Shown piece after piece: positions 10,501-63,764 of a stretch of 64,000 nt of DNA. Source of the DNA: an uncultured bacterium (GTDB lineage Bacteria > Patescibacteriota > Gracilibacteria > Absconditabacterales > Absconditicoccaceae); the NCBI GenBank assembly GCA_963552955.1, contig CAUVLQ010000007.1, positions 1,200 through 65,199 of the forward strand. Reading direction: 5' to 3'. Below the pieces are notes generated by a model that saw only the letters and a list, made by a program, of their open reading frames with translations, was not told where the DNA came from and made no database searches. Position 1 is the first letter of the stretch, and every line of letters starts with the position of its first letter. Both the position numbers and the translations under genes were made by a program.

Positions 10501-10612
10501 GATGATATCATGTGTATAAGGGAGAAAAAATCTGATTTTTCTCTCTTTTCTCTTGAAATAAAGCGGAATTCGGCTATAGTTTTGCTCACATTTTACTCAT
10601 GTAGAAAAGAGA

Positions 10613-11068
10613 ATGAACCATATAGGATGGCAGTTGAAAATTGCTGATATGCTCCAGACTAATGTTACTGATGAAATAGTAATTGAAAATGAGGATTTGG
10701 ATATGATAGCAGGGCTCTCAGAAGAGGGAATTTCAGCCAAAATTAGACTTCAATCTTTGTGAAAAGATGCTATTTTTGCTGTGATTGAGGAGCTTGAGTG
10801 TGAGATTACTGAGATTTGTGACAGTTGTGGAAAGGAATATCAGACAGCGGTAAGTGTTCAGGACTATAGTGCAAAATATGTCTTATCTGTTGATGAAGAT
10901 GAGCCTGAGGAAGAAGTGCTTTTGATTGATCAGAGAAATGGAATTATTGATCTTTGAGAGTTGGTGTATCATGCGATTAAAATGCAGGAGCCTTTTGTAA
11001 AGCTTTGTCCTGATTGTGAAAATAAGGAAATCTCTGATGATGATCAAGATTTGGAAGAACGGGAATAA
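10613..11068 (+). CDS. YceD/DUF177 family protein
   Basis: Acidic 151 aa protein with the paired Cys motifs CDSCGKEY ... LCPDCENKE and the IDL-G-ELVYHAI segment typical of DUF177. Two in-frame TGA. Confidence 0.7.
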
Positions 11069-11137
11069 AAATCTGATTTTTCTTTTTTGATATTAAAAAA
11101 TCCCTTATATAAGGGATTTTTTTCTGTTCTAAATTTA

Positions 11138-12691
11138 TTATTGAGTACAGAGTGACATGTTTTTAAGTTCTCTATAGATTTCAAATTTTTTGATCATCTG
11201 GTTGTAAGGAGAGAGTCTATCAAATTCTTCAATTTGAGATGTGAGAGAGTCTTTAAGTTCTAGAAGATTTGAAAGAAGTGCAACCTTACCGTCTGAAGTA
11301 TCAGTACTTGCTCCGATGATTTTCATCTTTTCATTTACCTTATCTAGAGCACCTTGTACTGTTAGGTCCGTAGAACTTCCGCTACCAAAGCATGCTTCCT
11401 TGAGTAGTGTTGAGATTTCAGTAGATTCTTCAGTAGAGATTCCTCTTCCATAGATGTTAAAGCTTACATTTCCTAGGTATTCACCATCATCAGCGAGTGA
11501 GAATCCTTGCGCCTTTGCTTTATCAAAGGTAAAAGACTGAATGGCGATCAATGGTGGTATTGAAGCATAAAAATCTTTGAGCAATGTTGCTTTATCTGCT
11601 GTTGATTCCACTCAAATCGAGTAGGCTAGTCCTGGAATAGTTCTATATTTGTCTCTAAATCTAAAGTAACATGTAGCTGAAGATTCTTTTTCTCCACAGA
11701 CGATACTTTGTTTGATGACCTTGTCTACGAGTGCGTTATCTATCAGGAGATTTACTTCATCAGATTTACTTTCTAGAAAGTTATAAAGATAATGTGCAAT
11801 AATCTGATTTTTGAATGTTTTTTCATCCATAGTATCGCTTTTTTTTGCACCATAGGTTTGAATCAGATTTTTGATTTCTTCTGCTTTTTCTTCTCTAATA
11901 GTGTCAAAGAGATGGTAGGTGAAATCATTTAAAAGTCAGATATTGTTGATGTTTGATGTGAGTGAGAGTTTGTCTACCAGTAGGAGAAAGGCTCTTTTTG
12001 AGTTTGATTTGAATGAGATGGAGATTGGTATGCTAAAAAATCAGTTTTCTCCTTCTTTGATCTCTCAGATTTGCATATTTACGACTTCATTGGTTCCGAT
12101 ATCCTTACCACTTTCTCTGATGATACTACTCCATTGAGAAAGGAGAGAGATGTCTTGGTATGGATTTTTTTGGAGATATTTTTTACCAAGAATACTTAGA
12201 TCAATTTGTTGAGTATATGGATCCTTCCAAATATTGAGTGATGGAAGGAGAAAATTTCTCAAAAAGTCTGAATATACACTTTTTTTGAAGTTGAGCTCTG
12301 CTTCAACTCTCTCTTTTGTAGTTTTTGTAGTAGTGTAGAGCTCCAGCATCTCATTGAAGTTGGTTGGAAGCTCGTCTTTAAGATCAGCCATAAGCTCATC
12401 GTTTTTGAAGGTGTTGAGTTGATAGTTTTTGAGTTGTTCAAGTTGAGAGAGTCTTTGATTGAGCGCATGGTTTCTATAAAATGCTAATCCGATAAAGATT
12501 AGTGTAGTCAGCAAAAGTGCTCCGAAGATTCCAAGCATAATAAGATAACTTTCTTTCTTCACTCAAAAGGCGAGTATTTCTCAGTTTTTTCACTTTTTTT
12601 TACCGCTTAGATTGAGCCAGAGATTTTTTGCCCATTCGATTATAGCTTTCATGTCAAATGTTCATTTTGTGCTTCCAATATTGAATTCCAT
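11138..12691 (-). CDS. hypothetical membrane-anchored protein (517 aa)
   Basis: Track ORFs 12065-12562, 11612-11830 and 11138-11611 are one frame joined by TGA. First ATG is 12691, after an upstream TAA. One TM helix, LIMLGIFGALLLTTLIFIGLAF. Confidence 0.6.
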
Positions 12692-12729
12692 TGTAAATAT
12701 GTAGATATAAAGCTGATTTTTGTTTTAGA

Positions 12730-14388
12730 TTATTGATTTTCTAGAGTAGCATTGTCTCCTGATTCTGTTTCAGAATCTGTTAGGAATCCTCAAATTTCAT
12801 TTTTATTTGTTTCCTCAGAGTTTGCTTGTTCTGATAGAGGCGTATTATTTGTTGGTAATTGATTTTCTGTTTCTTGTGTAGGCATAAGATTTGACTGATA
12901 CTTATCTACGTAGTCAAAGATTTCTCTTTCAGTATTTTTTTGGATTGGAAGAGTGAATGTTTTGACTGAATTGTTTACCATATATTTTGAACCTCAGATT
13001 GTGATAGGTTTTGAAGTTACTCTGATATCCTTTGCATCAATTGCTTTTCCCACAATGAAGGTACTTTGCTTGAGGAGTTGGATGAGCTCTGAAACGATGA
13101 AGATATGCGGACTCTTGATGCCTTGTTTGAGGAGTACGTATTCATCTTCTTTCAAGGTGTTTACCTCAACAGTAAATGCGATACTATTACTCTTTCCATC
13201 AAAGCTATTGAAGGTGATTGAGAAGCTTGGTACATTGCTGTATTCTAGTTTTTTATCAATATGCTCCATGAGTTTCTTGAAAAAGCTAGTATTAAACGGC
13301 TTTTCTCCAGTTGATTTTTCTCTGAGTTGATAATACTTATCGAAGTCTCAGATAATGTTACATTGCACTGGTTCGTATGGATTATTATAACAATAGTTAA
13401 GATAATTCTGAATATCGTTTTCACCTCTTTCAATAAGTTCATTCAGGATTTTTTTGATTTCTGATTGTTGGTATCCGAAGTCACTTACCATTGATGAGAG
13501 GAAGGTATCCATTAGAGAGAAAACCTTGATTGCACTTGAGAATTTTACTACTTCAAGTGAGAGGAGACTTCTTTGGATTGATCCAACAGCATTATCTTGC
13601 TTGAGGATTCATACGAGTTCTTCTGGGAAAAATCAATCTTTATTGAGAGCATTAGTATCTTGCTGGATCTTTCACTTGAGGTCAAGAATGCTTGTTCCAA
13701 TCTTGTTTGCAACAGATTGAAGGATATCTCTTTTCTGGACGTAATTTAGAGAGAAGTCTTTGATGATTTTAGTGATTTTTTCTTTTGCTCATTCATCAAC
13801 ATTCAGATTTTCGTATTTTTGGAGATCAAAAAGTCCGAGTGTTTGTCAGTATTCATCATAGTTTTCGGATGTTTTTTCCGTGATGGGTGAAAGATGGGAA
13901 ATATCTGTTTGAGATTTTTCTCCTAAATACTTCCAAAATGCAAATGAAGCAAATCCTAAAATCCCTAATATAATTGATCCTACGAGCAAAAGCAAAAATT
14001 TTTGATTGTAAGACACAATTTTTGTCGGATGAACTCCATGGGCTCCAAGTCCTGCGATATTATCATTTAGGAGATCAAGAGTTGTGCTCACTCCAGCTGC
14101 AGCAATGTGCATATTGCTATCATCTTCAGGATCAGCTTTTTGTTCTACTAGTTTCTCCTCGCTTTTGAGTTCTGGAGCTTTGTCAGTAGCAAGTTGAGCT
14201 TGAAGAGATTGTTGAGGCTTAGACTGAGGAGCTGGCACTGTTGGAATAGCTTCTCAGTCTTGAGCTTGCTTTACTCCTGCATCAGTTGGAACTGGGATCT
14301 CTTGCGGTGAATTTTTTGCGGCTTTTTCAAGCTGTGATGCTAGAGATTCCTCTAAAAGTGGATTTGTGCTATCTTCTGCAATTGCCAT
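12730..14388 (-). CDS. hypothetical membrane-anchored protein (552 aa)
   Basis: I translated 13270-13848 codon by codon and found only TGA, no TAA/TAG, joining ORFs 13846-14238, 12994-13269 and 12790-12981. Acidic/Pro-rich N-terminus, then TM helix FLLLLVGSIILGILGFASFAFW. Confidence 0.6.
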
Positions 14389-14600
14389 AAATGATGAGCA
14401 TTAAGGTATAAAAATGTTCTCTTAAGTATAGTTGATTTTTTTTAAAAGTCAAAAAAGTCAGATTTTTTTTGTTTTAGAAGTTTGCTTTTTTGCTTGAAAT
14501 TTTCAGTTGCATTTAGCTGTCAAAATTTTATACTTGAGTGCAAAAATGCGGAATTTTTTCGCTGAAATCAGAATTTTATGATCTTAAATATATATAAATA

Positions 14601-16106
14601 ATGCCACTACGAGGAGCAATCGTTTCGGCGGCTATTTCTTTAGCGATTGGAGGAGCTGCTGGTTTTTATGGATATAAAAAATCGCTTACAGAAAAACAGC
14701 TTCGTTACAAGAAGAAGATGGAAAGAGTAAAGGAAATTGAAGAGGAAATGCTTGATGAAGCAAAGAAGAAGGCTGAAGTTATCCTTGAACAGGCAGAGGT
14801 TAAAGCTCAGAAGATTGAGGATCAGAGGCTTGCTAAGATGGAAGAGATTCAAAACAGGCTCTTATTGAGAGAAGAAAAGATGGATCAAAAGCTTGAAAAG
14901 CTTGAAGAAGAAAAAATGAAAATTGTCGAGAAACAAAGAGAAGCTGATCAGTTGATTGACCAGCAAAAGATGAAACTCTCTGAAATTGCTGGAATTAAGC
15001 CGGAGGAAGCTAAACAGCAAATTATGGAAAGGATTGAGGCTGAGCATCAGGAAGAATTGATTAGGTATATTGAGAAGTTTAAGACAATTAAGGCTGAGGA
15101 AGCTAGAAAAGAAGCAGCAATTATTATTTCTCAGGCTTTGCCTAAGGTTGCTGCTGATACCGTGAGCGAATTTACCTCAAAGATGATTGACTTGCCAAGT
15201 GAGGAATTTAAGGGAAAGCTAATTGGAAGAGAGGGAAGAAATATTTCGCTCTTTGAAAAATTGACAGGAGTTGAATTATTAATTGATGATACGCCTCTTT
15301 CAGTCAGAATTTCATCTTTTGACTGTGAAAAGAGATTTGTTGCTGCAAAAACCCTTGAACTTTTGATCAAAGATGGAAGAATTAATCCTTTTTATATTGA
15401 AAAGGTCTTTAATCAGGTGACTGCTGACTTGCAGACTACTTTGATGGAAAAAGGAAAGGAGGCATTGACTGTTTTGAATATCCCCATGATGAAACCTGAA
15501 GTAGTAAGAGCTATTGGTCAGTTTTTTCTAAGGTATAGTTATGGACAAAATTTGTGGATTCATTCTCTAGAGGTGGCAAAAACTTCAGAGATGATTGCTA
15601 TTGATCTTGGATTGGATCCAGTTTTGGCAAAAAAAGCTGGTTTGCTTCATGATGTTGGAAAAGTACTGGCTGGAGCTGGGGAATCGCATACGAAAGTTTG
15701 AGCAGATATGTTGCGTAAATGGTGAATGGATCCTGTGATTGTTAATGCTGCAGAATCTCATCACTATGATGTAGAGATGACACATCCAATCTCATGGATT
15801 GTGGCCGCTGCAGATGCGATGTCGGCTTCTAGGCCTGGAGCTAGATTTGATACCAAGGAGTTCTTTATTGAAAAGATGGGAGAGCTTGAGAAGTTGATTC
15901 GTGAGGTTGAAGGTGTTGAGAAAGTGCATATTATGCAGGCGGGAAGAGAAATTATGGTCTTTGTAAACCCAAAGATGATCTCAGATTTGCAGGTTGAAGG
16001 ATTGCTCCAAACTGTTGGAAAGAAGATTGAGGAACAGCTTGACTATCCAGGAATTATTAGACTTACAGCGTTAAGAGAAACAAAACTCATACAATATCTA
16101 AGATAA
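14601..16106 (+). CDS. rny: ribonuclease Y
   Basis: N-terminal TM helix, Lys/Glu coiled coil, KH motif LIGREGRNI, HD domain LLHDVGKV ... ESHTKV-G-ADMLRKW-G-MDP ... AESHH (both G are TGA). Confidence 0.95.
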
Positions 16107-16932: not shown

Positions 16933-18465
16933 ATGAAGTTCTATTTTGCCAAGACTGAGAGCTTATATAAAATATTCAAAACTCTTGAAAGAATCCCACC
17001 TCAAAAGGCTGCTGAGATCTTTATTGATCCCGAGCACTCTTTTTTTGAAAATCAGCGATGGGGAAAGGAAGCATTGAATATTATCAAGAATAGAAATCTG
17101 AATATTACTTTTTTGGCAGAGAAACCTTCGAGTAGAATTTATTTTCAGCAGATCGGAGCACAGGTTCAGTATAAGGAAGAAAGACTTATTCTGAAGGTGC
17201 TAAAAACAATTTCTCTTTTTTTGTTTGATATCAAAAAGTTTCACCTTCATACCTACAATAAGCAAAAGTATCTGTTTTATATGGTATTTTTCTTTGAGAT
17301 TTTAGCGGGGCTTGGTATTGTCTGGCTTTTATTTTTATTGATCTTACCAAGTGCGAGTATTACCTTAAAAGTATCTCAGCAGACTGAAAATATTATTTAT
17401 AACTTTCGTTATTATCCTGCGAGTGATCAACAGTATTTAGGGGCTATCAAGCAGCTGAGTATTCCTTATTATACAGGGAAGGTGGACTATGAGTATACGC
17501 TTTCTATTAGTACGGAAAATATCAAGCATATTATTAACCCTTCTGCTGGTAATGTAAAAATCTACAATAAAACGCCAAATGAGCTCAAACTTGTATCTAA
17601 TACCAGGTTTGTAACTGCTGATGGGTTAACATTTCTTACAAGAGAGCCTATTGTTATTCCTCCAGCAATTAATGGTAGTACCTCAGAACTTAAAGTGAAG
17701 CTTTATGCAGCTGAATATGATGAGTCTGAAAATATCATTTGAGTAAGAGGAAATATTCCAGCTAAGACACAGTTAACAATTAGAAATGTGAAGGATAGCT
17801 ATTATCTCAAGCAAATCTGGGCTGAGACGATGGAAAATTTTACTGGAGGTGCTATGAAATCACTTGGTATGGTCTCGGAAAAGGATCGTGAGCTTTTAGC
17901 AAAGAAGATAAAAGATGCTGTCTATAAAGATAAACTTAATATTGTAACGAGGCAGTTTTCTCAGAAAAATGCAATGGTGCTGCTCTTTGATCCGTTGATC
18001 AAAACAAAGTTTAATGCACTTTCAATAGATTGAAATATTTGAGATAAGACAACTTCTCTTAGAGGAATGGCTCAGGTTTCTTTTGATTTTTTGTATCTCA
18101 AATGGGATGATGTGGTCAGTGCGTTTAGCACCTATGTTAAGCAGAGGCAATCGGATAGTATTCAGCTTATTAGTCTCGATCCCAATACTTTTTGATTTGT
18201 TGGAGATCTTGGTCGAGTGATTCAAAATAAGGTTTTTATGCTGCCGACCAAAATTACTATTTTGCAAGGATATGATTTCTCCAGAGATACGAAGGGAATT
18301 CTTGGTCAGATTAAGACCAATATTGTTGGGAAGAGTATTGATGAGACAAGAAAAGAAATTCTGACATATCCAGAGATTTCTAGTGTGAAGATTGATCTTT
18401 GACTTTTGTGAGGTCAGACTTTGCCTGATATTCGCTCAAGAATCAAACTGAATGTTGAACTTTAA
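16933..18465 (+). CDS. hypothetical membrane protein (510 aa)
   Basis: ORFs 16933-17742, 17788-18033 and 18217-18402 share one frame joined by TGA. TM helix FYMVFFFEILAGLGIVWLLFLLIL. Followed by a canonical terminator. Confidence 0.6.
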
Positions 18466-19441: not shown

Positions 19442-19502
19442 ACTATTGTTTCTAAAAGATAAAACAATAATTCTGATTTTTCATTTTTTATTTTATATTG
19501 TT

Positions 19503-20678
19503 TTAGCCTCTTGGACAGCTATTGAAAATTCCAAAATCCATTAATCCAGGGACTTCCACATATTTTTCACAGGTATCGGCATCTACAGGGATTTCTCCTT
19601 GCCAATAGGTCTCTCGTCCATCATCAGTCTTTCCAAGGACGAGATATTCTGTATGTTCTTTACCTTTTTGCGTTAAGAAAATCTCTAGGAGATTTCCTTT
19701 TGTTTGAATTTCGCTATAGAAGGTAGTTTTTGTATCAAACTTCCCACGATAGTTGTTATAGTTAATCTTTTTGAAGAGATTTTCTGCTATTCCTTTTCTT
19801 CCTTCTACTAGAAAGTTATCTACTTTATCAGCGCAGCCCTCAAATATGGTAGCTCAGAAGCGAATCTTTGCTTTGTATTCATGTGTATTGCCGATTCCGT
19901 TATCAGTACAGGTTTCTTTGCTGATTTCTCCTTCGATTTCACCGAGATTGTATTTTTCTCCAGTGAAAATCAGATTTTCTCCTGATATTCCCCAAGACCA
20001 GATATAGGTACTATCAGTATCAAACTGATGAGTTTCATCGTTTAGAATCGTGTATGTCAGCGTACTCACTCTTAGTTCTGCATTCCAAAAAGGCTCCTCT
20101 CCGAATAGATCAAAACTAAATTCGAGTGGAGATGGATTTTTTTCATTAAATTCCGCACAGTGAATTTCAAAAGATTGAGTGTTTTCGGTGGAAATTTTCT
20201 CTAGTTCGTTGCTTGTTTCCTTTTTTTTATTAGAATCTTTTTCGTCTGAAGATGCAGTTTTTGTAGTTTCTTCTGGATTATAATTGACCTTTGAGTATAC
20301 AGAACAAATTAGGTTATCTTTTAAATACTCAACATAACCTTCTCCTATACCATCTCCTACGCTTTTTTCTACCCAGCCTTCAAATGCTTGATCGATTTTT
20401 TCTTGCATTCCGCTGTTTGATTTAATGTTGGTATTGCTAAGGAGGTAGCCAGAGAGTTCTCCATTGATTGATCCTCAACTGAAGGCTTGAGCAGTAATGT
20501 CTTTTGCTGTTTTTTCAAGTGTTGGTGCTAGAGTCTCTAGGAAGGCTTTTGCACTAATTAATCTCGTAGTCTCATTGTCTTCATTTGCTATTTTGGGACT
20601 TTTGATATTAGTGCATCCTGATAAGAATGCTACACATGGAATGAGTAGTATGAGACTTAGTTTTGATCGTTTTCACAT
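19503..20678 (-). CDS. lipoprotein
   Basis: M-G-KRSKLSLILLIPCVAFLSGC lipobox. In frame with ORF 19854-20408 on both sides via TGA. 1176 nt to TAA 19503-19505. Confidence 0.65.
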
Positions 20679-20942
20679 GAGTATGGGTATAAAAAAATAA
20701 AGAGTTATCTTCTATCGCATAATAGCCTTAAAGTAGTTAAAGTCAAGACTATATGAGATATTAAGTAGCAAGGAGAAAAATCAGATTTTTTATGTTTTTA
20801 AAGAGATAGCCTAGAGAGCTATCTGATTTTTTATCATCTATTCCCTTTTTGTTAATTTTTTTTAATCTAATTAGATATTTATAGATATTATACATATTAG
20901 AAATTATTTTTTACATGTGAGAAATACTATCTAAAATTTTAT

Positions 20943-22067: not shown

Positions 22068-24127
22068 TTTTCTAAGTGGGGCTTCTCTTTTCCCAGGCAG
22101 TCATCCTCTCCTTTATTTTTTAAAAGATTAGAAACTTCCCAAGCAAGGTAATCTGCAACCGTCTTTTTGAAGTCTTTCAAAGTCGGTTTGGTATCTATTG
22201 GTGCGGTTTGATTCCAGTCAGCTCCATTATTGGGATCAATAGTTCCTTCATAATATTCTTGATCAGTAAAGATTTTTAGTTTAGACTTTCAAAATCTGAC
22301 TAAATTCACAAGTTCTTCATATCTTCATTTTGCATTGTCAGTATCTTTAAGGTTATTACTTGCTTTTTTACGAGCTGTTCTTGTATAACCATCATTTGAG
22401 AAATCAATAAATTTTACAATTTCATCTTTTTCATGCTTTTCATTGACCTTGAAAACATAAATATAAGTCTGAACACTTGATTTCCCTACAAAAAGATCAA
22501 GAGGCATCTTGATACTAGCAAGGAGTGTATGCTTTTTTAAGATTTTCTGATTATATTCTTTCGCTTTCCCATTTCATGCTGATCCTTGGATGATAATTGC
22601 AGCATACCCTTTGTTCATCATATTAAGTGCCTTTTCTACAAAGACCATTCAACATCCACTTGCAGAATAGGGCGGATTAAGTACGAAAGCATCTGCTGGA
22701 AACTCTTTATTTGTTTCTCAATATCAATATTTTCCATCAAAATCTAATAATGAATCTTTATTGAGAATATTTGAACTTCCATCTCCCATCAGAATCATAT
22801 TCAAAATAGCGAGCATATAGACACTAGGCAAGATTTCAATTCAAAGCAGTTGTTCAGCTTTTATTTTTAGTTCTTTTTGAAGTAATTTATCTGGAGAAGT
22901 TATAGTATTTTTTGCATCAATTAGCATTTCATTCATTGCAGATACCAGTAATCCGGCAGAACCGGTAGCAAAATCCCAGACATAAGAATCTTTATTTACC
23001 CTGGATAATTTTACTAGTAAATTTGCTACATATGAAGGCGTTAAAACAACATCATTAAGCTTATCTTGACTAAATCCAAGCCAACCATACATTTCATTAA
23101 AAAGTTTTCCTGTAAAATCAGTTGTTAAGCCGATTTTATAATAAATTCATAAATCATCTATAATTTTAGTAAAAACTCTTTTTAGCTGAGTCTCTCCATT
23201 ATGGACTCTATTTATATTGCTATTTTCAAGGGTGTTTTGTAAAGTTCTAATAATTAGGTTTTTCTTTTCCTCTGGTAAATCCTTTTCTTGCATAAATGCT
23301 TTAATTTTTCTGATAATAATTTCTCAGTCAGTATTTCATTTTTCATTAGAAGATTTTAAATCGGATTTTTCAAGTGGTGCAACCTTCCCATCAATTCAAA
23401 GAGTTGCAATAATTGATGATGCTACTAAATAAACACGATCATTTTCTCATAGTCATTTTTCATTTTGATAAATATCATTATTTAGCTTTACCAAGCTTGC
23501 ATCTATTTCTTTTTCTCTTTGTTCTTTGATCTGAGCAAGCTCTTCATCAGTTAAACTTAAACTTTTTACTTTTTCTATAAATTCATCAAAATGCTTTTTT
23601 GCTAAAAAAGAAAAATCTGAATACTCTCAAATTTTTTGTCCAATTCAGAGATTACTTTTGGAAACATAATATACACCAATTTTGTGATGAATATTTCAGA
23701 GTCCGTCTCTATGCCCAGTCATTCAGATAGCAATAATGTCTGAATAATTTGTGTAATGCAAAATTCCATTCGCATAATGTACTGCTCCATTTACCGCAAA
23801 AGAATTTATATTTTTAAAGTTCCATTCATTTTTTGCGTTTTTATTTTCTACTTGCCCATGAGTATCGAGTTTTATCAATTTGTCTTGATACCCCTTATAC
23901 TCTATCAAAATAGGCCAGTCTTTTTGATTTTTATCACGGAGAAGGAGTTTTACATCAGGACGATTTTTCCCATTTCCTCCATTTTTAGAAAAATAATCAG
24001 CAAGTGCTTTGTCTATATCAGTATTTAGGAACTCTTGCTCTAACTTATAATCTAAATGGTAAGATTTTAGCCAACTGTTCGCTAAATCAGCAATATTGGG
24101 TTCTATAGATTGAATTTTTTGAACCAT
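22061..24127 (-). CDS. fused PD-ExK endonuclease / N6-adenine DNA methyltransferase (BcgI-like type IIB/IIG RM subunit)
   Basis: I translated 22508-22843 and 23093-23725 codon by codon: no TAA/TAG, so ORFs 23723-24127, 22841-23092 and 22325-22507 form one 688 aa protein. N-terminus [11 protein letters not shown]...WPILIEYKG (PD...ExK). [12 protein letters not shown] (motif I). FVLNPPYS (motif IV). Confidence 0.8.
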
Positions 24128-51370: not shown

Positions 51371-51501
51371 TTCAGAATTTTATTCTTATTCAAAAGAATG
51401 ACCCACTGAATGATTATAACCTTAGTATTCTTGGTTATTTACATATATCTCATTCGGAAAATTCTCGATGAGAAGTAAAATTTTATTTATTATGTATTGA
51501 A

Positions 51502-54839: not shown

Positions 54840-54922
54840 CTTTTCGGTATTACCGAAAAGGTCAGAGATGTACGAGAATTTCGTACAGCTGAAATCAGAT
54901 TTATTTATTATTATTTTTACAA

Positions 54923-55192
54923 ATGACAAGAGAAGAGAAGTTAGAAGCCATATACGATGAAATTGATAGAACTATTGTATTTTTTAATCAGTTTTGAGGT
55001 ATAGAATTTGATTGAGAATGAGATGATTATACATTCCTCCCAATTGTGATTGGTGATATTATGGAATACTTCAAAAATTCACGATGATATGTTGACTGTA
55101 TTATTGGGCTTTGGAATGATTACGCAAATCCCCTATATCTACAATCAGATGAGTGTATAGACTATGTTTATTCACTGATACCGAAATCATAA
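54923..55192 (+). CDS. hypothetical phage protein
   Basis: 89 codons, four TGA, frame checked to TAA 55190-55192. Confidence 0.4.
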
Positions 55193-55225
55193 GTCAGATT
55201 TTTTATCTTTTTTTTACGAAAGCAG

Positions 55226-55501: not shown

Positions 55502-55550
55502 AGTAAACAAAAACGATAAATCAGAATTTTATTTCTTTATTAACTATAAG

Positions 55551-56479: not shown

Positions 56480-56695
56480 ATGGCAATGGAGGAATTTAAG
56501 GTATGAGATAAGGTAAGATACACTCAAGACTACCTCGATCAGCGAGAGCTTGTAGTTGGGATACCCTATCCGTTTCAGGATACCTATACCATCAAGGAGC
56601 AGCTTACAGCAATCTCCTACTTGGCAGACTGAGAGAAGCCTGAGCATAGGGGGAGAATAGTCCATCCTCGAGGGATGGAGAAAATAGAAGAATAA
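56480..56695 (+). CDS. hypothetical phage protein
   Basis: 71 codons, two TGA, two CGA, frame checked to TAA 56693-56695. Confidence 0.35.
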
Positions 56696-56726
56696 TTCTG
56701 ACTTTTATTTACTTTCTATACTTAGA

Positions 56727-56954
56727 ATGAAATTAAGAATTGTCCAACTTCCCACTGGAGAATACGAAGTTCAGAAATTCTATGATAACAAAAAAGATTC
56801 TCCTTATTGGGCTCACTACTACCATAAAGAACCTTGATGACCTTTCCCGATGCCTGACCCAAATCAATCAAGATTTTTTACTCTAAAAGCAGCAGAAGCG
56901 TTTATTAAAATGCTTTTAGAAAAACTGAAGATTGTAAAGGAATTTGAAATTTAA
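56727..56954 (+). CDS. hypothetical phage protein
   Basis: 75 codons, MKLRIVQLPTGEYEVQKFYD..., two adjacent TGA (KEP-GG-PFP). Confidence 0.4.
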
Positions 56955-57080
56955 AAAATCTGATTTGTCGCCTTCAAGTATCTAAAAACTCTTAAGGGTT
57001 GACTTTCTAAAAGATAAGAGTATAAGAAAACCACTATATTGATTTTCCAGTGGTTTTTTATTTTTATTTTCAAAATACTC

Positions 57081-58112
57081 ATGAAAAGATTTCTAACACT
57101 CCTTCTTGTAGGGATTTTTAGCTTTGGGATGCTTAGCTTTGCTCAGACCCCAGTAGAGCAAAAGGCTGACGAGTTAAGAGCTGTTGTAAAACTCATACTT
57201 AATCAATCAAAAGATAAACAAAAAGATACTCAATTCGTAAAAGCTCTTTTTGCATGATGCGAACAAACTTGCTCTGATTCTACAATTAAAGAAGCGGCAA
57301 AACTTATAAATACTACCTTTGATAAGGATTTTTGACTTACAGCTACTGAGGCAAAAAATCAGACTTATAAACTTATTGAGGTTGTGGATTGAGACACTGT
57401 AAAAATCGAGAAAGATGGACAAGTAGTATCTGTTCGTATGATTGGGCTTGATGCTCCAGAAAGCACAACTATGAGATATGGTCATATGGAGTGTTTTGGT
57501 AAAGAAGCAGCAGCTCATCTTACTCAGCTCCTAAGTTGAGTTTCTCAGGTTGAACTAGAGGTTGATCCTACTCAGACAGCAACTGACAAGTACTGAAGGC
57601 TTCTTGGGTATGTAATAGCAAACGGAGTAAATCTGAATCAGAAGATGATTGAAGATGGATATGGATTTGAATACACCTACAATCTCCCTTATAAATATCA
57701 ATCTGAATTTAAATCTGCTCAAAAAATAGCTTCAGAAAAGAAATTTGGACTTTGGGCTGATGTAGCATGTAAAGGCGAAAGAAAAGCTATTGAAGAGGAA
57801 TCTAAAAAAGAGACTGAAAAACCATGAAGCTCTGAAGATAACATTTCAAAAGAGGAATATTTTTCATACAAAACATACTACACTTGACCAAAATGAGGTT
57901 GCTATTATTGGAATGGAAATGATAAAGTTTATGTAGATAGGAGTTACTGTTGAAGAAGCACAAGTACTACGACAAGTTCCTCATATAATTATTCATCTAG
58001 CTCCTCATACAGCTCTTACTCAGATTCTTCATCAGGGAGAATTTGCTATACTGGACCAAGAGGAGGACGCTATTACTATAATAGTAAAGGGAAAAAAGTT
58101 TATGGGTGCTAA
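57081..58112 (+). CDS. secreted thermonuclease (SNase-like) with C-terminal Ser-rich linker and two YTGP(K/R)GG repeats
   Basis: Signal peptide MKRFLTLLLVGIFSFGMLSFA. SNase motifs VVD-G-DTVKI, VRMIGLDAPES, DKY-G-RLLGYV, EDGYG. C-terminal YT-G-PK-G-GCYYWNGNDKVY and CYTGPRGGRYYYNSKGKKVYGC. Confidence 0.85.
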
Positions 58113-58171: not shown

Positions 58172-60121
58172 TTATTCAATCAATGGAATCATATCGCATC
58201 TACAGTTTGGATGGAGAGGACTACCAATCACATTTTCATAATCTAGTCTTAATCTTCCTCAGTTATTACCACTCATAATAGATCATTGTTTGAAAAACTC
58301 CTCTTGCAGTCAGATTTTCTTTCAGTGCATCTTACCGCAATACTCACAAACCCTCTCATCTATTGCTGTTCGCCACTGTTTAGATTTAACAACTCAAGAC
58401 TGCTCTCGTGCTGATTGCTCAGCATAAGTCCCAAATCTGATTGCCTCCGTTCTGACGATGGTTTCTAACCTGCGACCTTGGAGTTCATCAAAGACTTTTA
58501 TGAGCTCTTGCTTGATCTCTTCAGGTTGCATATTTCCAGCAAGCCCCATCTCTACGACCTTTCCGATTTTCTCATCAGTTATTGTATCAACATTTTTTGC
58601 GATGAGCTGGATTTTTTGCTTCAGTTCTTTTTTGATTTTGTCTGTATTAAGATTGAACTCAATATCTACATTTAATTCGCTCATTGCTCTTACTCATTCC
58701 TCACTAATAAGCGTCTCCAATTCTGGTCTAAGATAAATATGATAGAGAGCATAGTATTTGAGTAAAAGTTGATAATCATATTTTTTGAATCCTTTTTTAT
58801 GCTCTTGCTCAAATTTTTTCAATATATCTTGCTTTTGCTTTTCAAAAATTTTCATAAATCAGACTTTTAGTCTTTTTTCGTATTCATCATTTTTTTTCTG
58901 TTTTTGTATCCATCTTTTCTGCATCCATTCTTCAGATCGCTTAATATTCTCCTTTACAATCGTCTGAAAATCTACCGATTTCATACTTATTCAGATGCTT
59001 TCTTTTTGTACTTCTTGTACTATTTCTGCATCTGTTCCGTCCACAAAGACATCTCCTCATTTGATAGGCTTATATCAAAGTTCTTGCCTGTACTCATTTC
59101 TTGTTATTCATCCTGCAAAATAATGATTCCTGATTTCCTCCTCGTCGGTTGGCAATACATTCACAAATTCAAAATTTCCGATCCCTTGGAATAACTGGTC
59201 ATTGAATACACGAGCAATCTTTTTCGCTAACGGCTCAATGCAACGAGATGCAAAAACCTGATTGAAAGCTTTTACGTTACCAACATTTACTCCTTCTCCG
59301 ATACCCAAAACTGCTTTTGGGACTTTATAAATTGCGAGAATTTTATCTCTATCTCGAGATTGCTGAGCAATAAATTCCATCTCCTTTGGTGAAGATTGGA
59401 GATTTGCTGGTTTGATACCAAATGGTAAAATTGCCAGCTTTCCAGCATTATCAGCTCAACTATGACGAGCTTCTCGGGAACTTCTAACTTTTTCTATTTG
59501 CTCCTTACTCATTGCCTGTTCTGTTGTGAGTATCATACCTGGAGGAGTGTCATGATTAAGGAGTGCGTAATTCCATTTTTCAATCTCTTTTTCCCCCCTG
59601 ATTGTCATTGCAATCGCTTGAATCGGACTATAACCTCTTGTGATATACGGATACCTTTGACTAGGATTAAACTCAGCAAAGACCATAACTTCTTCCGGTT
59701 GGAGGATGATTTTATTACTTCACTCTCGATAAATCCAATTTTTTAAGTATCAGTTACTATCTATTTGAGGGCTGATATTCCATGGCAAAAGCATACTCAA
59801 ACCAAGCACTTTTCTGTTATTCATCACCTTCCAAACATAAGCAGTTCCCGTCATCTTCATAAAGATTGCAATATTTTGCAAAAGCTCAGGAGTGATAAAG
59901 TCTGAATATTCGTGCTTAATCTCTTTATCTTGTTTGTCTGCAATTCTCCAATTTAAGCCTGAAAGACTATCGGAAATTGCTGTAATTGCTGCATATTGCC
60001 AACCGACGAAAAAATTTACATACTCATGATTCTTAATTGCTTTGTCTCAACCAAAACCTCAAAAAAGGGTTAAAAAACCTGTTTCAGATTTCTTAAAAAT
60101 ATTTTTTAGTCGAGCAAACAT
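58172..60121 (-). CDS. phage portal protein (HK97 family) fused to a Mu-F/SPP1-gp7-like head morphogenesis domain
   Basis: I translated 58685-59110 codon by codon with no TAA/TAG. ORFs 59456-59686, 59108-59380 and 58394-58684 are one 649 aa frame from ATG 60121. Portal-like IAQQSRDRDKILAIYKVPKAVLG. C-terminal RRLETIVRTEAIRF ... ERVCEYCG ... PLHPNCRCD. Confidence 0.75.
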
Positions 60122-60125
60122 TTTT

Positions 60126-60536
60126 TTACATTGAAAGAATAAAATCAGTATGGATTGCCAGTAAAACAATTGCATGGAGTGTTGGTCCACTTTCAGTCTC
60201 TACACTCTGAATATCTCAACCGACCGCATCAATTTTTAATGCCAATCAGTCTAAATCTGAACGATCAAATCTTTCTATTACTTCATCCAAAATGTCACAA
60301 AGATTCAACTCTGATTCCCTATTTCCAAGAGTTGTTGTCTCTTGAAAAATATTGATCTGGAAAAAATATTGTCTCTGATGATGGTTGCTATCCAGATTCT
60401 GGCTTTCCACTCTATCAAAATTAAAAAAGATTGACGGAAACCCTCCGAATTTTTTTGGTATCCCATCAAAAATTCCTGCAACTCATTCAATCTTTTGTAA
60501 TTCTAAAAGAATTTTTGCTCTCAATTCGTTTATCAT
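60126..60536 (-). CDS. phage head-tail joining / neck protein (DUF3168-like)
   Basis: 136 codons. Start overlaps the upstream stop (ATGATAA). The position after the gp10-like gene and its size fit neck/tail-terminator proteins. Weak motif support. Confidence 0.4.
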
Positions 60537-61576: not shown

Positions 61577-61778
61577 CCTTAGTTTCTGCATCTTCAGAAG
61601 TTAAAGCCTTATTCTTTGCTTTTTTAACAGTCTTAGTTTCTGCATCTTCAGAAGTTTCCTCTTCTTCAATGAGTTTAACATATTCCTCTCCATAGCTTTC
61701 AGCGACTTCTTGTTCAAGTTCTACAACTTCTCCAGCCACTTTACCATCAATTCTACCTTTAATTACTTCGTATTTCAT
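61569..61778 (-). CDS. small acidic phage protein with internal 24-bp repeat
   Basis: MKYEVIKGRIDGKVAGEVVELEQE... The C-terminal TSEDAETK duplication corresponds to the direct DNA repeat cttagtttctgcatcttcagaagt (two copies, about 61578-61601 and 61633-61656). Confidence 0.45.
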   Translation of the reverse strand: MKYEVIKGRIDGKVAGEVVELEQEVAESYGEEYVKLIEEEETSEDAETKTVKKAKNKALTSEDAETKDE

Positions 61779-61848
61779 GATATTTCTTATATTAAGAATA
61801 AAAAAGAAGGGAGAAATCAGAATTTTATACCTCATTCTCCCAAAAAGA

Positions 61849-62997
61849 CTAAGCGTGAGTCTTGATTACAGCGAACGCTTCATCAGCAAGAGAAATTCCG
61901 CATACTCTAGCAGATCCCTTGATTGATTGAATATCTTTCTCCCACTCTCCAGACTTATATCCAACTTCAAAGCTGAGTCCCTTTCTGATTCCAAGAGCAA
62001 AATGCTTCAATGCTCCAAATGCGATGAATGGAGTATTAACTGCGATTGATCCACTAGGCATCACATCTGTCAGCTTTACAGGATATCCGAGCAAGAATCC
62101 TCTTTCTCCGTTATCAAGTGTTCTATAAAGAGGTCTACCATCACTATCTTTAAGCTTCTCAATAATAGCAATTGCATCTTGGCTAAGGTACCAAGCAGGC
62201 TTTGCATTCTCCTTATACTTAAGAGGAACTTTTCTCACTGCATCAATCAAGTTGTCTGCTGTTAATGTTGCAGCATTACCAGTAGTCGTGATCACATTTA
62301 CATTTTGGAGATTACAAATTCCTTTGATTTTAGAATTTCCACTAGCTGTTCCAGTCAATACTTCTTTATCCAAGAAAGCAGCAAAAGCTTCAGCAAATTC
62401 TTCTTGAGCCTTATTCCAAATCTCATCTGCTTCTGCACTATCAGCAATGAGTTCATAGGTTGCTGAGAGAATTGCACCGATCTTTTTAGCTGTCAATTCT
62501 TTTCTCTCGTAGTCCATTTTAGTATCTTGGTATGCACCAGCTTCATCTACATAGAATACTTTGAGTCCTGTTTTTCTGAGAATAAAGTATTTTGTGTTAG
62601 AGTTCATTTTAGAGATATTACAATCTTTCCAGATTCCGTAGTTTTCCATAAATCTCAATACTCCTTTTTCAAACTCAGGATGAACAAGATATCCACCATC
62701 TCCATCAGTGCCAGTATTCATTGCCTTCATTACTGAATCATCTCCACTTCTGAGAGCAACTAATGCACCAATAAAGTCTTTTTTGGTCTGCTCAAGATTT
62801 TCTTCAGCATTACCAAATTTTGACTTTTCTACCAAGGTTTTAATCTGTTCCTTGATTTCTTTGATGTCAGTATTTTCTGACAAGTTTAATTCTTTGAGTT
62901 TTGCATCTACTGCCGCTTCTACTGCAGCAGGAACTGAATCCTCTAAAGATTTTGCCAACACTTCAGCGATTTGTTTCATTTGTGCTTCGTTCAACAT
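61849..62997 (-). CDS. HK97-family major capsid protein
   Basis: 382 aa uninterrupted ORF. N-terminal helical delta-like region, DGDGGYLVHPEF, and the typical length and position after the protease. Contains no TGA codon at all. Confidence 0.85.
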   Translation of the reverse strand: MLNEAQMKQIAEVLAKSLEDSVPAAVEAAVDAKLKELNLSENTDIKEIKEQIKTLVEKSKFGNAEENLEQTKKDFIGALVALRSGDDSVMKAMNTGTDGDGGYLVHPEFEKGVLRFMENYGIWKDCNISKMNSNTKYFILRKTGLKVFYVDEAGAYQDTKMDYERKELTAKKIGAILSATYELIADSAEADEIWNKAQEEFAEAFAAFLDKEVLTGTASGNSKIKGICNLQNVNVITTTGNAATLTADNLIDAVRKVPLKYKENAKPAWYLSQDAIAIIEKLKDSDGRPLYRTLDNGERGFLLGYPVKLTDVMPSGSIAVNTPFIAFGALKHFALGIRKGLSFEVGYKSGEWEKDIQSIKGSARVCGISLADEAFAVIKTHA

Positions 62998-63032
62998 GTT
63001 TTTTTACAAAATAAGAATAAAAATCAGATTTT

Positions 63033-63764
63033 TTAGCCTCTTACGGCTTTTTTGAACATTGAAATCCCCTCGTTAGCGGCTTTTGCAATGTTCTGTAGGG
63101 TTTCTTTTGCGATGTAATTTGCCTCGTCTGCCCCTTTGCTCTTTCCATCGAGCAAAGCTTTCAGAAGATTCTTTACCTCAGCTACTTCCCCCAATATCTC
63201 AGCTTTAAAAGCTTCTAATTCAGGTATTTCTTCCTGTAAGATTCCAGCCTCGATCCCCTTTTTCATAAGCTGTTTTTGATCAAGACTAAGAGCATTCGGA
63301 TTGCATGGAACTGCCACAAATGAGAGCTCCAAGAGTTCTGCACTTGTGATAATTCTGCGATTGTCCTCTTGTCTCTGCTTAGGTATAAAACCTACAGAAA
63401 CCGTTTTTACCATCCCTTCATCATAGAGATCAGCCAACAATACTCCGAGTGGATTGCTCTTACTGAATACTCATTCAATAATCAATTTTCCATCTTCTAC
63501 TCAAATTTTTGTAGCTTTACCTACGATATTTTCTATTTGATAATCGTGATTTGCGATTATGACAGGATTTTTCATATAATTTTCCCAGTCCCATCCAGCA
63601 ACTTTGATTACTTCTCAGCTTCTATCAGTATCCTCAGTCGAAGCGACAACTCTGAATTTTCTATCAGAATTTTCCTCTTTTATTTCAAGAGAAGCAATCT
63701 GATCCTTGATTGATTTTGCCTGTTCCTCACTAATAGAGAGGAACTTTGCTTGCAATTCATTCAT
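63033..63764 (-). CDS. HK97-family prohead protease (S78/U35) with C-terminal helical (scaffold-like) tail
   Basis: VVASTEDTDRS-G-EVI, NPVIIANHD, VSVGFIP. ATG 63764 is in frame with ORF 63033-63440 through TGA. Confidence 0.8.

Follow-up and report, generated by a model that had tools for sequence, protein, structure and literature searches.

An abundant eight-base word behind an intergenic palindrome in an oral SR1 bacterium: a candidate DNA-level signal

Introduction

The DNA stretch analyzed here (64 kb, in the following termed the window) originates from a human-oral SR1/Absconditabacteria genome and repeatedly carries a palindrome composed of an A-run, the sequence TCWGA and a T-run. A sequence-only reading regarded this motif as essentially intergenic and proposed a promoter or transcription-start element, a bidirectional A/U hairpin terminator or a protein-binding site. 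The locus thus raises the question of which unit is recognized, and at which level.

Results and Discussion

Identity, frequency and strand balance of the motif

The A-run/TCWGA/T-run palindrome is only the visible part of the eight-base word AAATCTGA, and among the forms of this lineage-specific, genome-wide word, 5'-(A)AAATCTGA(TTT)-3', the palindrome between genes is under the least constraint. With 63 copies (0.98 per kb), AAATCTGA outnumbered every other 8-mer of the window; in dinucleotide-preserving shuffles of the window, 10.9 copies were expected and the largest value was 19. The same type of shuffling predicted 0.01 copies of the exact 15-mer AAAAATCWGATTTTT and 0.38 copies of AAATCWGATTT, for which 6 and 15 copies, respectively, were observed; enrichment over a composition-matched background was thereby confirmed. 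An unbiased k-mer scan of the intergenic DNA, using a third-order Markov background and disregarding tRNA-derived words among the shorter k-mers, yielded AAATCTGA (18 vs. 2.2 expected) and AAATCAGA (18 vs. 2.5) as top words, with AAATCWGA being the highest-ranked non-tRNA word. Furthermore, the one-mismatch variants AATTCTGA, AAAGCTGA, AAACCTGA and AAGTCTGA were likewise enriched in the window (2-2.7 times).

The word occurs approximately once per kb on both strands, in every reading frame and in every spacer type. Since its strands are balanced (27 copies on the plus and 36 on the minus strand; binomial p = 0.31, without skew), it is not Chi- or KOPS-like. Exact copies reached a density of 2.1 per kb in intergenic DNA vs. 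0.8 per kb in genes, and half-sites 5.1 vs. 1.1 per kb. All sites at which the palindrome had been located by eye carry A-rich/TCWGA/T-rich sequence or a one-mismatch variant of it (GCTGA at 12707, TCAGT at 29706 and CCAGA at 38641), and the TCWGA core was near-invariant among copies. The intergenic copies and adjoining elements are as follows (strand in brackets where assigned).

3569..3576 (-), AAATCTGA
3649..3663, weak copy; GatB starts 28 nt downstream, at 3684
6681..6695, copy between two pilin-like genes that are 37 nt apart
7400..7414, copy between divergent genes (spacer 7329-7537)
10526..10540, copy AAAAATCTGATTTTT, 33 nt past the stop of 9166-10500 (+), enclosed by hairpin GAGAAAAA/TTTTTCTC (-10.7 kcal/mol)
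11067..11081, copy between convergent genes, overlapping the 10613-11068 stop codon
11095-11122, GC-stem terminator, separate from copy 11067..11081
12707..12721, variant AAAGCTGATTTTT, within an operon spacer 38 nt long
14453..14467, copy between divergent genes, immediately upstream of TTGACT-16-TATACT, a promoter-like match preceding 12730-14388 (-)
14563..14577, weaker copy, 31 nt ahead of the start at 14601
19467..19481, copy between tandem (-) genes 61 nt apart
20776..20790, copy AAAAATCAGATTTTT between tandem (-) genes 264 nt apart
20817..20831, half copy TCTGATTTTTT
27516..27530, half copy in a convergent spacer
27517-27492 (-), separate terminator beside half copy 27516..27530
28271..28285, copy AAAAGTCAGATTTTTTT, within an operon spacer 46 nt long; exact word at the aligned site of genome L016
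29685..29754, three copies or variants, centred at 29692, 29712 and 29747, between divergent genes 461 nt apart
32563..32577, copy between tandem (-) genes 90 nt apart; centre base T or A across related strains
34453..34490 (-), terminator-like hairpin, inverted TCTGA/TCAGA pair; includes a copy centred at 34483, just past the stop of 34491-35276 (-)
35356..35370, copy midway between divergent starts (87 and 82 nt); A/T arms of about 14 bp
36159..36166 (-), AAATCTGA, overlapping a -10-like box upstream of LysRS
37850..37879 (+), LysRS terminator AAAAAGAAGTCTGAagTCAGATTTCTTTTT, inverted word pair (-13.6)
38644..38658, variant copy in a convergent spacer, within a GAGAAAA/TTTTCTC hairpin; core CCAGA in the window, TCAGA in 5 of 7 relatives
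40051..40065, copy, 31 nt before the probable start (40027) of an SPL-family gene
43372..43386, best copy (A8-TCAGA-T8), 9 nt past the stop of the ABC-F gene (-)
45764..45771 (+), AAATCTGA, tRNA genes on either side
51367..51381, weak copy, phage-like block, directly past the stop of 50045-51370
54890..54904, copy, phage-like block, 26 nt upstream of the start at 54923
55189..55203, copy, phage-like block, 4 nt past a stop and 30 nt upstream of the start at 55226
55516..55530, copy, phage-like block, 28 nt upstream of the start at 55551
56692..56706, copy, phage-like block, 736-nt spacer
56954..56968, copy AAAAAATCTGATTTG, phage-like block, same 736-nt spacer
61812..61826, copy in the loop of a GGGAGAA/TTCTCCC hairpin past the capsid gene
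63019..63033, copy AAAAATCAGATTTTT between capsid and protease/scaffold-like genes

Copies within genes

The assumption that the motif is essentially intergenic, with two in-gene copies noted, did not hold: approximately 45 exact AAATCTGA words reside in coding DNA, among them six full 11-mers (at 4608, 9174, 9586, 19967, 43805 and 44777). The in-gene copies are listed below.

1044..1051 (+), AAATCTGA
4229..4236 (-), AAATCTGA
4608..4618 (+), full 11-mer AAATCTGATTT, within GatB
6973..6980 (-), AAATCTGA
9174..9184 (+), full 11-mer, encoding signal-peptide MKNLIF
9586..9596 (-), full 11-mer
11760..11767 (-), AAATCTGA
11863..11870 (-), AAATCTGA
12065..12072 (-), AAATCTGA
13803..13810 (-), AAATCTGA
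15981..15988 (-), AAATCTGA
17094..17101 (+), AAATCTGA
19967..19977 (-), full 11-mer
22292..22299 (+), AAATCTGA, HsdM-like gene
23613..23620 (+), AAATCTGA, HsdM-like gene
25188..25195 (+), AAATCTGA, directly past the start codon
25360..25367 (-), AAATCTGA
25879..25886 (+), AAATCTGA
26770..26777 (-), AAATCTGA, close to the gene end
30620..30627 (-), AAATCTGA
31743..31750 (+), AAATCTGA, invariant in 6 relatives
33370..33377 (-), AAATCTGA, relatives vary
35685..35692 (-), AAATCTGA
35809..35816 (+), AAATCTGA
35988..35995 (+), AAATCTGA
39244..39251 (+), AAATCTGA
39264..39271 (-), AAATCTGA, invariant in 7 relatives
39332..39339 (+), AAATCTGA
41059..41066 (+), AAATCTGA, invariant in 7 relatives
42155..42162 (-), AAATCTGA, invariant in 7 relatives
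43664..43671 (-), AAATCTGA, ABC-F gene
43805..43815 (-), full 11-mer, ABC-F gene
44777..44787 (-), full 11-mer, ABC-F gene
45201..45208 (+), AAATCTGA
47679..47686 (+), AAATCTGA, phage-like block
47948..47955 (+), AAATCTGA, phage-like block
48685..48692 (+), AAATCTGA, phage-like block
49391..49398 (+), AAATCTGA, phage-like block
50791..50798 (+), AAATCTGA, phage-like block
57629..57636 (+), AAATCTGA, phage-like block
58310..58317 (-), AAATCTGA, portal gene
58433..58440 (+), AAATCTGA, portal gene
60084..60091 (-), AAATCTGA, portal gene
60253..60260 (+), AAATCTGA, phage-like block

Across all coding DNA, AAATCTGA was again the commonest 8-mer (45 vs. 12.3 expected). Its excess amounted to 3.0-4.6 times the prediction from synonymous-codon shuffles in the three frames and both orientations, with 30 sense copies vs. 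6.5 expected (z = 10), distributed over the reading frames as 10, 9 and 11 in-gene copies, and 15 antisense copies vs. 5.1 (z = 4.8). The centre-swapped AAATCAGA was not enriched in genes in these shuffles (O/E 1.2), indicating that the recognized unit is asymmetric. In the phage-like block, AAATCTGA reached 0.83 per kb vs. 1.04 per kb in the host part, with an in-gene O/E of up to 7.8. The word is read at the DNA level and is neither an RNA element nor part of a promoter. Of the roles proposed before, that of a protein-binding site survives, namely as DNA-level recognition of a genome-wide word that includes coding DNA.

Conservation and distribution in related genomes

Among relatives with 93-98% identity, the in-gene copies of AAATCTGA diverged by 1.4%, whereas 8-mers drawn at random from coding DNA diverged by 4.9% (P = 0.002; 0.01 when GC-matched). 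Third codon positions within the word were changed in 9 of 238 comparisons, the background rate being 0.102 (p = 2e-4). The motif is present in related genomes: AAATCTGA is the commonest or second commonest 8-mer of the closest oral SR1 genomes (93-98% nucleotide identity) and also of L011, L014 and L046. The most distant (Gracilibacteria-type) genomes and many environmental SR1 genomes contain only 0-0.1 copies per kb. Based on approximately 20 kb per genome, different abundant words were detected in other SR1 lineages, namely AAAGCTGA in L032 (0.88 per kb, both orientations, all frames), AATCCTGA in L015/L017 and ATCTGAC in L077/L038/L084, all of which have CTGA in common.

A candidate DNA uptake sequence

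AAATCTGA may represent a DNA-level signal of the DUS/USS type, a reading that we favor tentatively and with somewhat less than even confidence. To our knowledge, a DNA uptake sequence has never been reported in these uncultured SR1 bacteria. The type IV pilus/Com machinery would include a DNA receptor at the cell surface with a preference for DNA carrying AAATCTGA, self DNA would preferentially be taken up and recombined, and the resulting bias would maintain the abundance and conservation of the word. Some copies, as inverted pairs or self-complementary A-run/T-run copies, may have been co-opted as terminators, similar to the situation in Neisseria and Pasteurellaceae.

Two type IV pilin-like genes are encoded in the window. 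Com and type IV pilus genes were reported to be conserved throughout CPR phyla, and natural transformability was reported for Saccharibacteria (PMC10633639). The SR1 lineage words sharing CTGA resemble the Neisseriaceae DUS dialects, all of which keep a CTG core (PMC3630211). Furthermore, the published anatomy of USS/DUS (PMC1852404; bioRxiv 10.1101/2025.10.24.684340) is matched by the A-run that opens the extended motif, by its AT-rich flanks, by the excess in intergenic DNA and by the inverted pairs in terminators.

Several observations count against an uptake function. The peak of AAATCTGA is less sharp than that of a DUS, because its one-mismatch variants are enriched too. Uptake sequences tend to be rare in recently acquired DNA, and the near-host density in the phage-like block is therefore unfavorable. 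Similar statistics would be expected from a word driven by repair or methylation, which has been proposed for HIP1, and some hints of a link to transcription were obtained, as described below.

Placement in spacers and relation to promoters

The motif was verified in tandem, convergent and divergent spacers, and intergenic copies avoid the 5'UTR and core promoter. In short operon spacers, it lies less than 10 nt from the stop codon in nine cases and never less than 23 nt from the start codon. The intergenic copies fill whatever DNA is not taken up by stop codons, core promoters and 5'UTRs, and acquired long A/T runs there. In spacers of 100-600 nt, 19 copies were located 60-90 nt upstream of start codons vs. 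6.9 expected (P = 1e-4), i.e., just upstream of the -35 box. Several non-orthologous copies adjoin a -35 hexamer, and the arrangement A-run TCTGA N TTTT TTGACT-16/17-TATACT is repeated at non-orthologous promoters (window 14460, L012/L016 12641 and L015 5185). This clustering and the -35-adjoining copies could reflect a transcription-linked role.

Accordingly, AAATCTGA with bent A/T-tract flanks might be the site of an abundant sequence-specific DNA-binding protein (nucleoid-associated, a global regulator or UP-element-like and promoter-flanking) that organizes the nucleoid or modulates many promoters, which we consider rather unlikely, yet worth weighing. The quasi-palindromic 7-1-7 sites with A-tract and T-tract flanks, the position upstream of -35, the presence of copies in four of the seven divergent spacers and the use of the word by the phage-like block would fit such a protein. 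However, the spacing from motif centre to the start of the -35 hexamer is not fixed (7 to 31 nt), and copies also occur in convergent spacers, 4-9 nt past stops and about 45 times in genes. The 60-90 nt peak is equally expected if copies simply occupy the only stretch available, which runs from a stop codon or an opposing promoter to the -35 box. We know of no nucleoid or regulator site representing the single commonest 8-mer of a genome, which also argues against this explanation.

An iterated word comparable to HIP1, without a direct cellular role and maintained by a biased process, linked to repair, gene conversion or methylation, that acts on all DNA resident in the lineage, appears unlikely. 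It would account for the frame- and orientation-independent enrichment, the conserved copies, the similar density in host and phage-like parts and the enriched one-mismatch relatives; moreover, the palindromic TCWGA core resembles many methyltransferase targets, and putative DNA methyltransferase genes were read from translations in the window. Nevertheless, the unit enriched in genes is AAATCTGA and not AAATCAGA, an asymmetry that a palindromic methylation site would lack, and neither the A/T-run flanks nor the intergenic excess is predicted by such a process.

Folding and terminators

A weak bidirectional A/U hairpin terminator or another RNA-level element, in which the A-run pairs with the U-run around a TCWGA loop and transcription ends or RNA is processed, is improbable as a general explanation, although it applies to a minority of copies. 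Approximately 5 of 31 copies fold at -6.8 kcal/mol or below, among them those at 10533 (-10.7), 38651 (-10.1), 37868 (-9.5; -13.6 extended) and 32570 (-6.8). Two terminator-like hairpins consist of inverted word pairs (34453-34490 and 37850-37879), the LysRS terminator arrangement being the same in L013 and related in L011, and a stop codon precedes 14 of the 17 copies of tandem or convergent spacers by 4-33 nt. In contrast, most copies fold at -3 kcal/mol or weaker (means of -2.8 and -1.8 on the plus and minus strands vs. -1.3 for shuffles), and the arms show no G/C covariation (9 compensating G/C pairs vs. 9.2 expected). The T-run is the longer tail on the plus strand in tandem+ (6.0 T vs. 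4.67 A) and tandem- spacers (6.55 T vs. 5.36 A) alike, irrespective of gene direction, whereas the tails in Neisseria follow the direction of genes (PMC1852404). GC-stem terminators exist separately beside the copies at 11074 and 27523, copies also occupy divergent spacers and genes, and the near-invariant TCWGA is left unexplained.

A promoter or transcription-start element approximately 30 nt upstream of start codons is highly improbable: the distances of 23-41 nt read previously are numerically right and apply to 13-14 copies, but these lie almost all in operon spacers of 33-90 nt, whose geometry mostly explains the clustering, spacers of at least 80 nt show no enrichment of the 24-35 nt class (6 vs. 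3.9 expected), canonical sigma-70-type promoters (TTGACT-16/17-TATAAT) exist apart from the motif at variable -35 distances, and the motif is not oriented with respect to the gene and is found within convergent spacers and genes as well.

Finally, TGA encodes glycine in the source genome, and standard-code ORF calls are therefore misleading here.

Genetic Code and Gene Map of the Window

When TGA was read as a sense codon, the ORFs of 150 or more codons in the window added up to 73 kb instead of 14 kb; ORF calling under the standard code, which yielded almost no long ORFs, was rejected in favor of the TGA-as-sense calls. Furthermore, Walker A motifs appeared as GKNGAGK or GKNGAGKT only when TGA was translated as glycine. 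TGA is a glycine sense codon, i.e., code 25 is used, across the window. The gene map is hidden by standard-code ORF calling, and statements on intergenic placement require code 25, which was applied throughout for genic and intergenic assignment. A protein encoded in the window was also present on human oral metagenome contigs, and LysRS showed 97–98% identity to oral 'candidate division SR1' MAGs and 81% identity to SR1 oral taxon HOT-345. Together with the reassigned TGA, these matches indicate that the host is an oral member of the Absconditabacteria (SR1) using code 25. The following features are referred to below:

5123–7329 (−), pilin- or pseudopilin-like operon of three genes (5123–5926, 5907–6656, and 6694–7329), two of them with the type IV N-methylation motif (PF07963)
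45391–46646, cluster of nine tRNAs directly before the phage-like block
47292–63764 (47.3–63.8 kb), phage-like block with RecT-like, clamp-like, methylase, portal, and capsid genes

Enrichment of the Palindrome and of Its Core Word

The sequence-only reading had described a recurrent palindrome composed of an A-run, TC(A/T)GA, and a T-run, and all of the positions it named carry A-rich/TCWGA/T-rich sequence or a one-mismatch variant thereof. Compared with dinucleotide-preserving shuffles of the window, the exact 15-mer palindrome AAAAATCWGATTTTT was observed 6 times (0.01 expected), AAATCWGATTT 15 times (0.38 expected), and the 8-base word AAATCTGA, counted on both strands, 63 times (10.9 expected). 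An unbiased scan of intergenic DNA under a third-order Markov model placed AAATCTGA and its center-swapped counterpart AAATCAGA at the top of the 8-mers, with 18 copies each versus 2.2 and 2.5 expected, respectively, and in the corresponding 6- and 7-mer lists, tRNA words alone outranked the motif words. The k-mer enrichment over a composition-matched background, named as a check by the sequence-only reading, is far beyond chance, and the recurrent palindrome is genuine. One-mismatch variants of AAATCTGA are likewise enriched in the window.

The palindrome had been regarded as essentially intergenic, which did not hold for its core: approximately 45 copies of AAATCTGA are located within genes. 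At 0.98 copies per kb, this word is the most frequent 8-mer of the window, above all A/T homopolymer-like words, and is distributed over the plus strand (G-rich, presumed leading; 27 copies) and the minus strand (36 copies) without significant bias (p = 0.31). When synonymous codons were shuffled within each gene, keeping the protein and its codon usage, sense copies exceeded expectation 4.6-fold (30 versus 6.5, z = 10) and antisense copies 3.0-fold (15 versus 5.1, z = 4.8), and the sense and antisense pair ranked first among the 8-mers of all coding DNA (45 versus 12.3). Since the sense copies use the three reading frames equally (10, 9, and 11), codon pairs, peptide motifs, and TGA context fail to explain the excess and were rejected as its origin.

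The counterpart AAATCAGA showed no enrichment in genes (O/E 1.2), and outside of full palindromes, 48 copies of AAATCTGA were counted versus 19 of AAATCAGA. The recognized unit is therefore asymmetric and corresponds to AAATCTGA, after which a T is preferred; what looks like an intergenic 'palindrome' consists of this word with a T-run behind it, on one strand or the other. Half-sites reach 5.1 per kb in intergenic and 1.1 per kb in coding DNA, the overall intergenic excess being 2.6- to 5-fold, and the density of AAATCTGA amounts to 0.83 per kb in the phage-like block versus 1.04 per kb in the host part. A search for a REP or MITE unit of at least 20–35 nt found no information in the flanks beyond the A- and T-runs, and a repeat of this type was dismissed, no conserved unit extending beyond the core.

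Location of the Intergenic Copies

Intergenic copies were called with a 21-nt weight matrix (score ≥12), resulting in 26 copies, one of which lies in a 37-nt spacer between two genes of the pilin-like operon. They were distributed as follows:

Tandem spacers with a copy, 16 of 35
Divergent spacers with a copy, 4 of 7
Convergent spacers with a copy, 2 of 7 (3 of 7 when counting copy 27523, score 12.0)

The distance to a stop codon was below 10 nt in nine cases, and the distance to a start codon was never below 23 nt. Within spacers of 100–600 nt, positions 5–22 nt (0 versus 4.0 expected) and 36–59 nt (2 versus 5.4 expected) upstream of starts were avoided, and positions 60–90 nt upstream were favored (19 versus 6.9 expected; P = 1e-4), placing the copies outside the 5'UTR and the core promoter. 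The cluster of copies 23–41 nt upstream of start codons that had been pointed out is present, but as a positional signal it reflects the geometry of short operon spacers, because copies lie outside the 5'UTR and core promoter. The 24–35 nt class was not enriched in spacers of 80 nt or more (6 versus 3.9 expected), and once spacer length was taken into account, a fixed distance between motif and start codon was rejected.

Canonical TTGACT-16/17-TATAAT promoters are present as features apart from the motif. An arrangement of A-run TCTGA N TTTT TTGACT -16/17- TATACT/TATAAT, in which the T-run of the motif passes into the −35 box, recurs at 14425–14467 (−) of the window, near 12641 (−) in L012/L016, and near 5185 (+) in L015, all three being loci from SR1 and related genomes. 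The flanking genes of window copy 14460 and of the L012/L016 copy are unrelated; the latter was rejected as evidence of conservation, not being orthologous to 14460.

Conservation and Distribution among Relatives

Conservation was evaluated in seven relatives with 93–98% nucleotide identity, covering 22–50 kb of the window. Copies within genes diverged by 1.4% versus 4.9% for random coding 8-mers (P = 0.002; GC-matched P = 0.01), 13 out of 17 were invariant (7.4 expected), and third codon positions within the word were changed in 9 of 238 comparisons versus a background rate of 0.102 (p = 2e-4). Intergenic cores were modestly conserved (4.3% versus 6.0%). At site 32570, the center base is T or A depending on the strain, and site 38651, represented by the degenerate CCAGA in the window, reads TCAGA in five of the seven relatives. 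For relatives at 81–84% LysRS identity, only 3 of 29 sites could be aligned at orthologous positions, synteny and nucleotide similarity being too low.

The distribution of the word was surveyed in 80 loci of approximately 20 kb each, rather than whole genomes, from SR1 and related organisms. AAATCTGA ranked first or second among 8-mers in the closely related oral SR1 loci as well as in L011, L014, and L046, and was among the top three in L012, L013, L045, L062, and L065 when only words with at least two G/C were considered. Values of 0–0.1 per kb were obtained for the most distant (Gracilibacteria-type) genomes and many environmental SR1, and the intergenic density ran parallel to the overall word distribution. 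Other words were abundant in both orientations elsewhere, namely AAAGCTGA in L032 (0.88 per kb, all frames), AATCCTGA in L015/L017, and ATCTGAC in L077/L038/L084. All three contain CTGA, and AAAGCTGA and ATCTGAC, counted as 7-mers, reached 3.9–4.6 times the synonymous-shuffle expectation in genes. These findings, from about 20 kb per genome, are suggestive of CTGA-sharing dialects in other SR1 lineages. A capsid search of viral contigs recovered near-identical phages and one short divergent contig; the density of AAATCTGA was 0.58–0.84 per kb in the related contigs and 0 in the divergent one (L089, 4.5 kb).

A Possible DNA Uptake Sequence

As the traits of the word are those by which DNA uptake sequences have been characterized in the literature, a DUS/USS-type signal was ranked first among the explanations considered, and we tentatively propose that AAATCTGA may serve in uptake. 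The word is asymmetric, strand-symmetric in its distribution, frame-independent, and conserved in genes. It also shows an excess in permissive intergenic DNA, occasional terminator pairs, an A-run at the front, and AT-rich flanks; close relatives share it, and other lineages seem to use related words in its place. It is the top 8-mer of the 64 kb studied, at about one copy per kb, and ranks first or second in the ~20-kb loci of related oral SR1; strand equality, the coding excess, and the intergenic excess including terminator pairs were all observed. It is possible, at a similarly tentative level, that oral and animal-associated SR1 own a DNA uptake sequence, AAATCTGA with A/T-tract flanks, accompanied by sister dialects sharing CTGA.

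The DUS of Neisseriaceae (e.g., ATGCCGTCTGAA) and the USS of Pasteurellaceae (AAGTGCGGT with AT tracts) are likewise the commonest genome words at approximately one per kb, equally frequent on both strands, in excess over codon usage within genes and in excess in intergenic DNA, with inverted pairs acting as terminators. Their extended motif also opens with an A-run and has AT-rich flanks, and DUS dialects are lineage-specific variants sharing CTG(A) (PMC3630211, PMC1852404). The extended Neisseria DUS is aaatGCCGTCTGAAa, the CTG core needed for uptake is retained in all DUS dialects (PMC3630211), and about half of the uptake sequences reside within terminators (PMC1852404; PMC3630211; bioRxiv 10.1101/2025.10.24.684340). 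Regarding competence genes, the window encodes two pilin-like proteins with the N-methylation motif; Com proteins (ComEC, DprA) and type IV pili have been reported to be conserved across CPR phyla, and Saccharibacteria are naturally transformable (PMC10633639). A literature search retrieved no report of this motif or of uptake-type words in Patescibacteria, and no uptake sequence is mentioned in the publications consulted on CPR competence and transformation.

The word differs from the DUS and USS in several respects. Its host, a monoderm-like CPR bacterium whose genetic code is reassigned, is far from the Proteobacteria; AAATCTGA is shorter, AT-rich, and nearly self-complementary, so that a single copy makes a palindrome; and its peak is less sharp. 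Sharing with close relatives is clear, and the dialect words derive from about 20 kb per genome. Three points weigh against the uptake reading. Published uptake sequences tend to be rare in DNA of recent acquisition, prophages included, whereas the phage-like block is not depleted of the word. Moreover, one-mismatch variants are enriched as well, and copies cluster just upstream of the −35 box, with the A-run TCTGA N TTTT TTGACT arrangement located at non-orthologous promoters.

If the word is such a signal, uptake sequences would for the first time extend beyond the Neisseriaceae and Pasteurellaceae, and the Candidate Phyla Radiation would gain its first example. This would imply self-preferring natural transformation in these epibionts and a form of DNA self-recognition that arose, or arrived convergently at a CTG(A) core, at a great distance from the Proteobacteria. 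To our knowledge, SR1/Absconditabacteria are epibionts that are uncultured or barely cultured and have no genetic system; adding the word to donor DNA would offer a concrete transformation route if it is an uptake signal. Even otherwise, an 8-mer present once per kb and conserved in genes represents an unexplained DNA-level system in a reduced genome, and the word can be used as an inexpensive taxonomic marker when SR1 contigs and their phages are binned.

Alternative Explanations

The strongest competitor of the uptake reading is a site for an abundant DNA-binding protein, which we consider rather unlikely, but which is kept in play by the promoter-adjacent clustering, the density in the phage-like block, and the enrichment of one-mismatch variants. 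Known protein-binding sites offer partial parallels. The CodY box AATTTTCWGAAAATT of Firmicutes is a 7-1-7 palindrome with a CWG center and A/T arms, as is the motif, and UP elements are A/T tracts directly upstream of the −35 box. However, the half-site is AAAAATC here and AATTTTC in the CodY box, and unlike CodY boxes, UP elements, or IHF-type sites, the copies occur at a density far above that of a regulon, also within genes, and without a fixed spacing to the −35 box.

A word driven by repair or methylation, as proposed for HIP1 (GCGATCGC) of cyanobacteria, appears less probable still. HIP1 is short, lineage-specific, of unknown function, and present about once per kb in coding and non-coding DNA, which resembles the pattern described here, and the phage-block density, the one-mismatch enrichment, and the clustering near the −35 box are compatible with such a word. 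In contrast to HIP1, a strict GC-rich palindrome, the unit within genes is asymmetric, AT-rich, and flanked by A/T-runs, with a 2.6- to 5-fold intergenic excess. Chi and KOPS are also over-represented, frame-independent 8-mers; an element of this kind was ruled out by the lack of strand bias (27 versus 36 copies).

That some of the intergenic copies act as weak terminators is improbable. Like intrinsic terminators, the copies combine an A-run, a short inverted repeat, and a T-run, many lie just past stop codons, and a few belong to real hairpins. Two terminator-like hairpins consist of inverted TCTGA/TCAGA pairs:

34453–34483 (−), terminator-like hairpin
37850–37879 (+), LysRS terminator, arranged identically in locus L013 and in related form in L011

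Of the bidirectional A/U hairpin terminator suggested earlier, this part stood: about 5 of 31 copies fold at −6.8 kcal/mol or better. A stable stem is absent from most of them. Folding of 29-nt windows gave means of −2.8 (plus strand) and −1.8 kcal/mol (minus strand) versus −1.3 kcal/mol for shuffles. The arms showed no covariation, G/C-containing Watson–Crick pairs at mirrored positions numbering 9 versus 9.2 in shuffles. The longer tail was the plus-strand T-run in tandem plus, tandem minus, convergent, and divergent spacers alike; the T-tail tracks strand composition and not gene direction, unlike the tails of Neisseria USS/DUS terminators. Also unlike intrinsic terminators, which combine a stable stem and U-run only downstream of genes, the copies overall extend into divergent spacers and genes, and their 'loop' is invariant. 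GC-stem terminators are found separately at 11095–11122 beside copy 11074 and at 27517–27492 beside copy 27523. The stem AAAGAAGTC/GACTTCTTT is common to the terminators at 37850–37879, at 58124–58157 (bidirectional, between 57081–58112 (+) and the portal gene), and at 11660–11710 of L011, and looks like a preferred terminator stem in these genomes.

A promoter or transcription-start element is barely credible, as the spacing to the −35 box varies (a fixed spacing was rejected), copies are also found within genes and between convergent ones, and the fixed position relative to −35/−10 and gene direction that characterizes a sigma-70 promoter, UP element, or activator site was not found.

Further Features of the Window

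An Rfam scan of the window detected tRNAs only and no other family; a short (58-nt) tRNA-like piece at 53130–53187 inside the phage-like block, called by Rfam alone, may be an attachment-site remnant. The antisense ORF at 57555–58199 (−), with 214 codons including 11 TGA and overlapping the 3' half of the nuclease-like gene 57081–58112 (+), was treated as spurious. An HsdS-like gene (20943–22067, −), with 23 in-frame TGA among 374 codons, adjoins an HsdM-like gene (22061–24127), and this low-GC stretch (29–31%) may be an acquired island. The gene at 50–1714 (+) encodes a G3E/CobW-like GTPase with a long His/Asp/Glu-rich insert (HDHDHDHHDHHHEHDHEHDHEHNHH...). Finally, the paralogous lipoprotein-like genes at 7537–8259 and 8383–8841, the second being shorter, have near-identical N-termini and 90-nt upstream regions and look like a recent tandem duplication.
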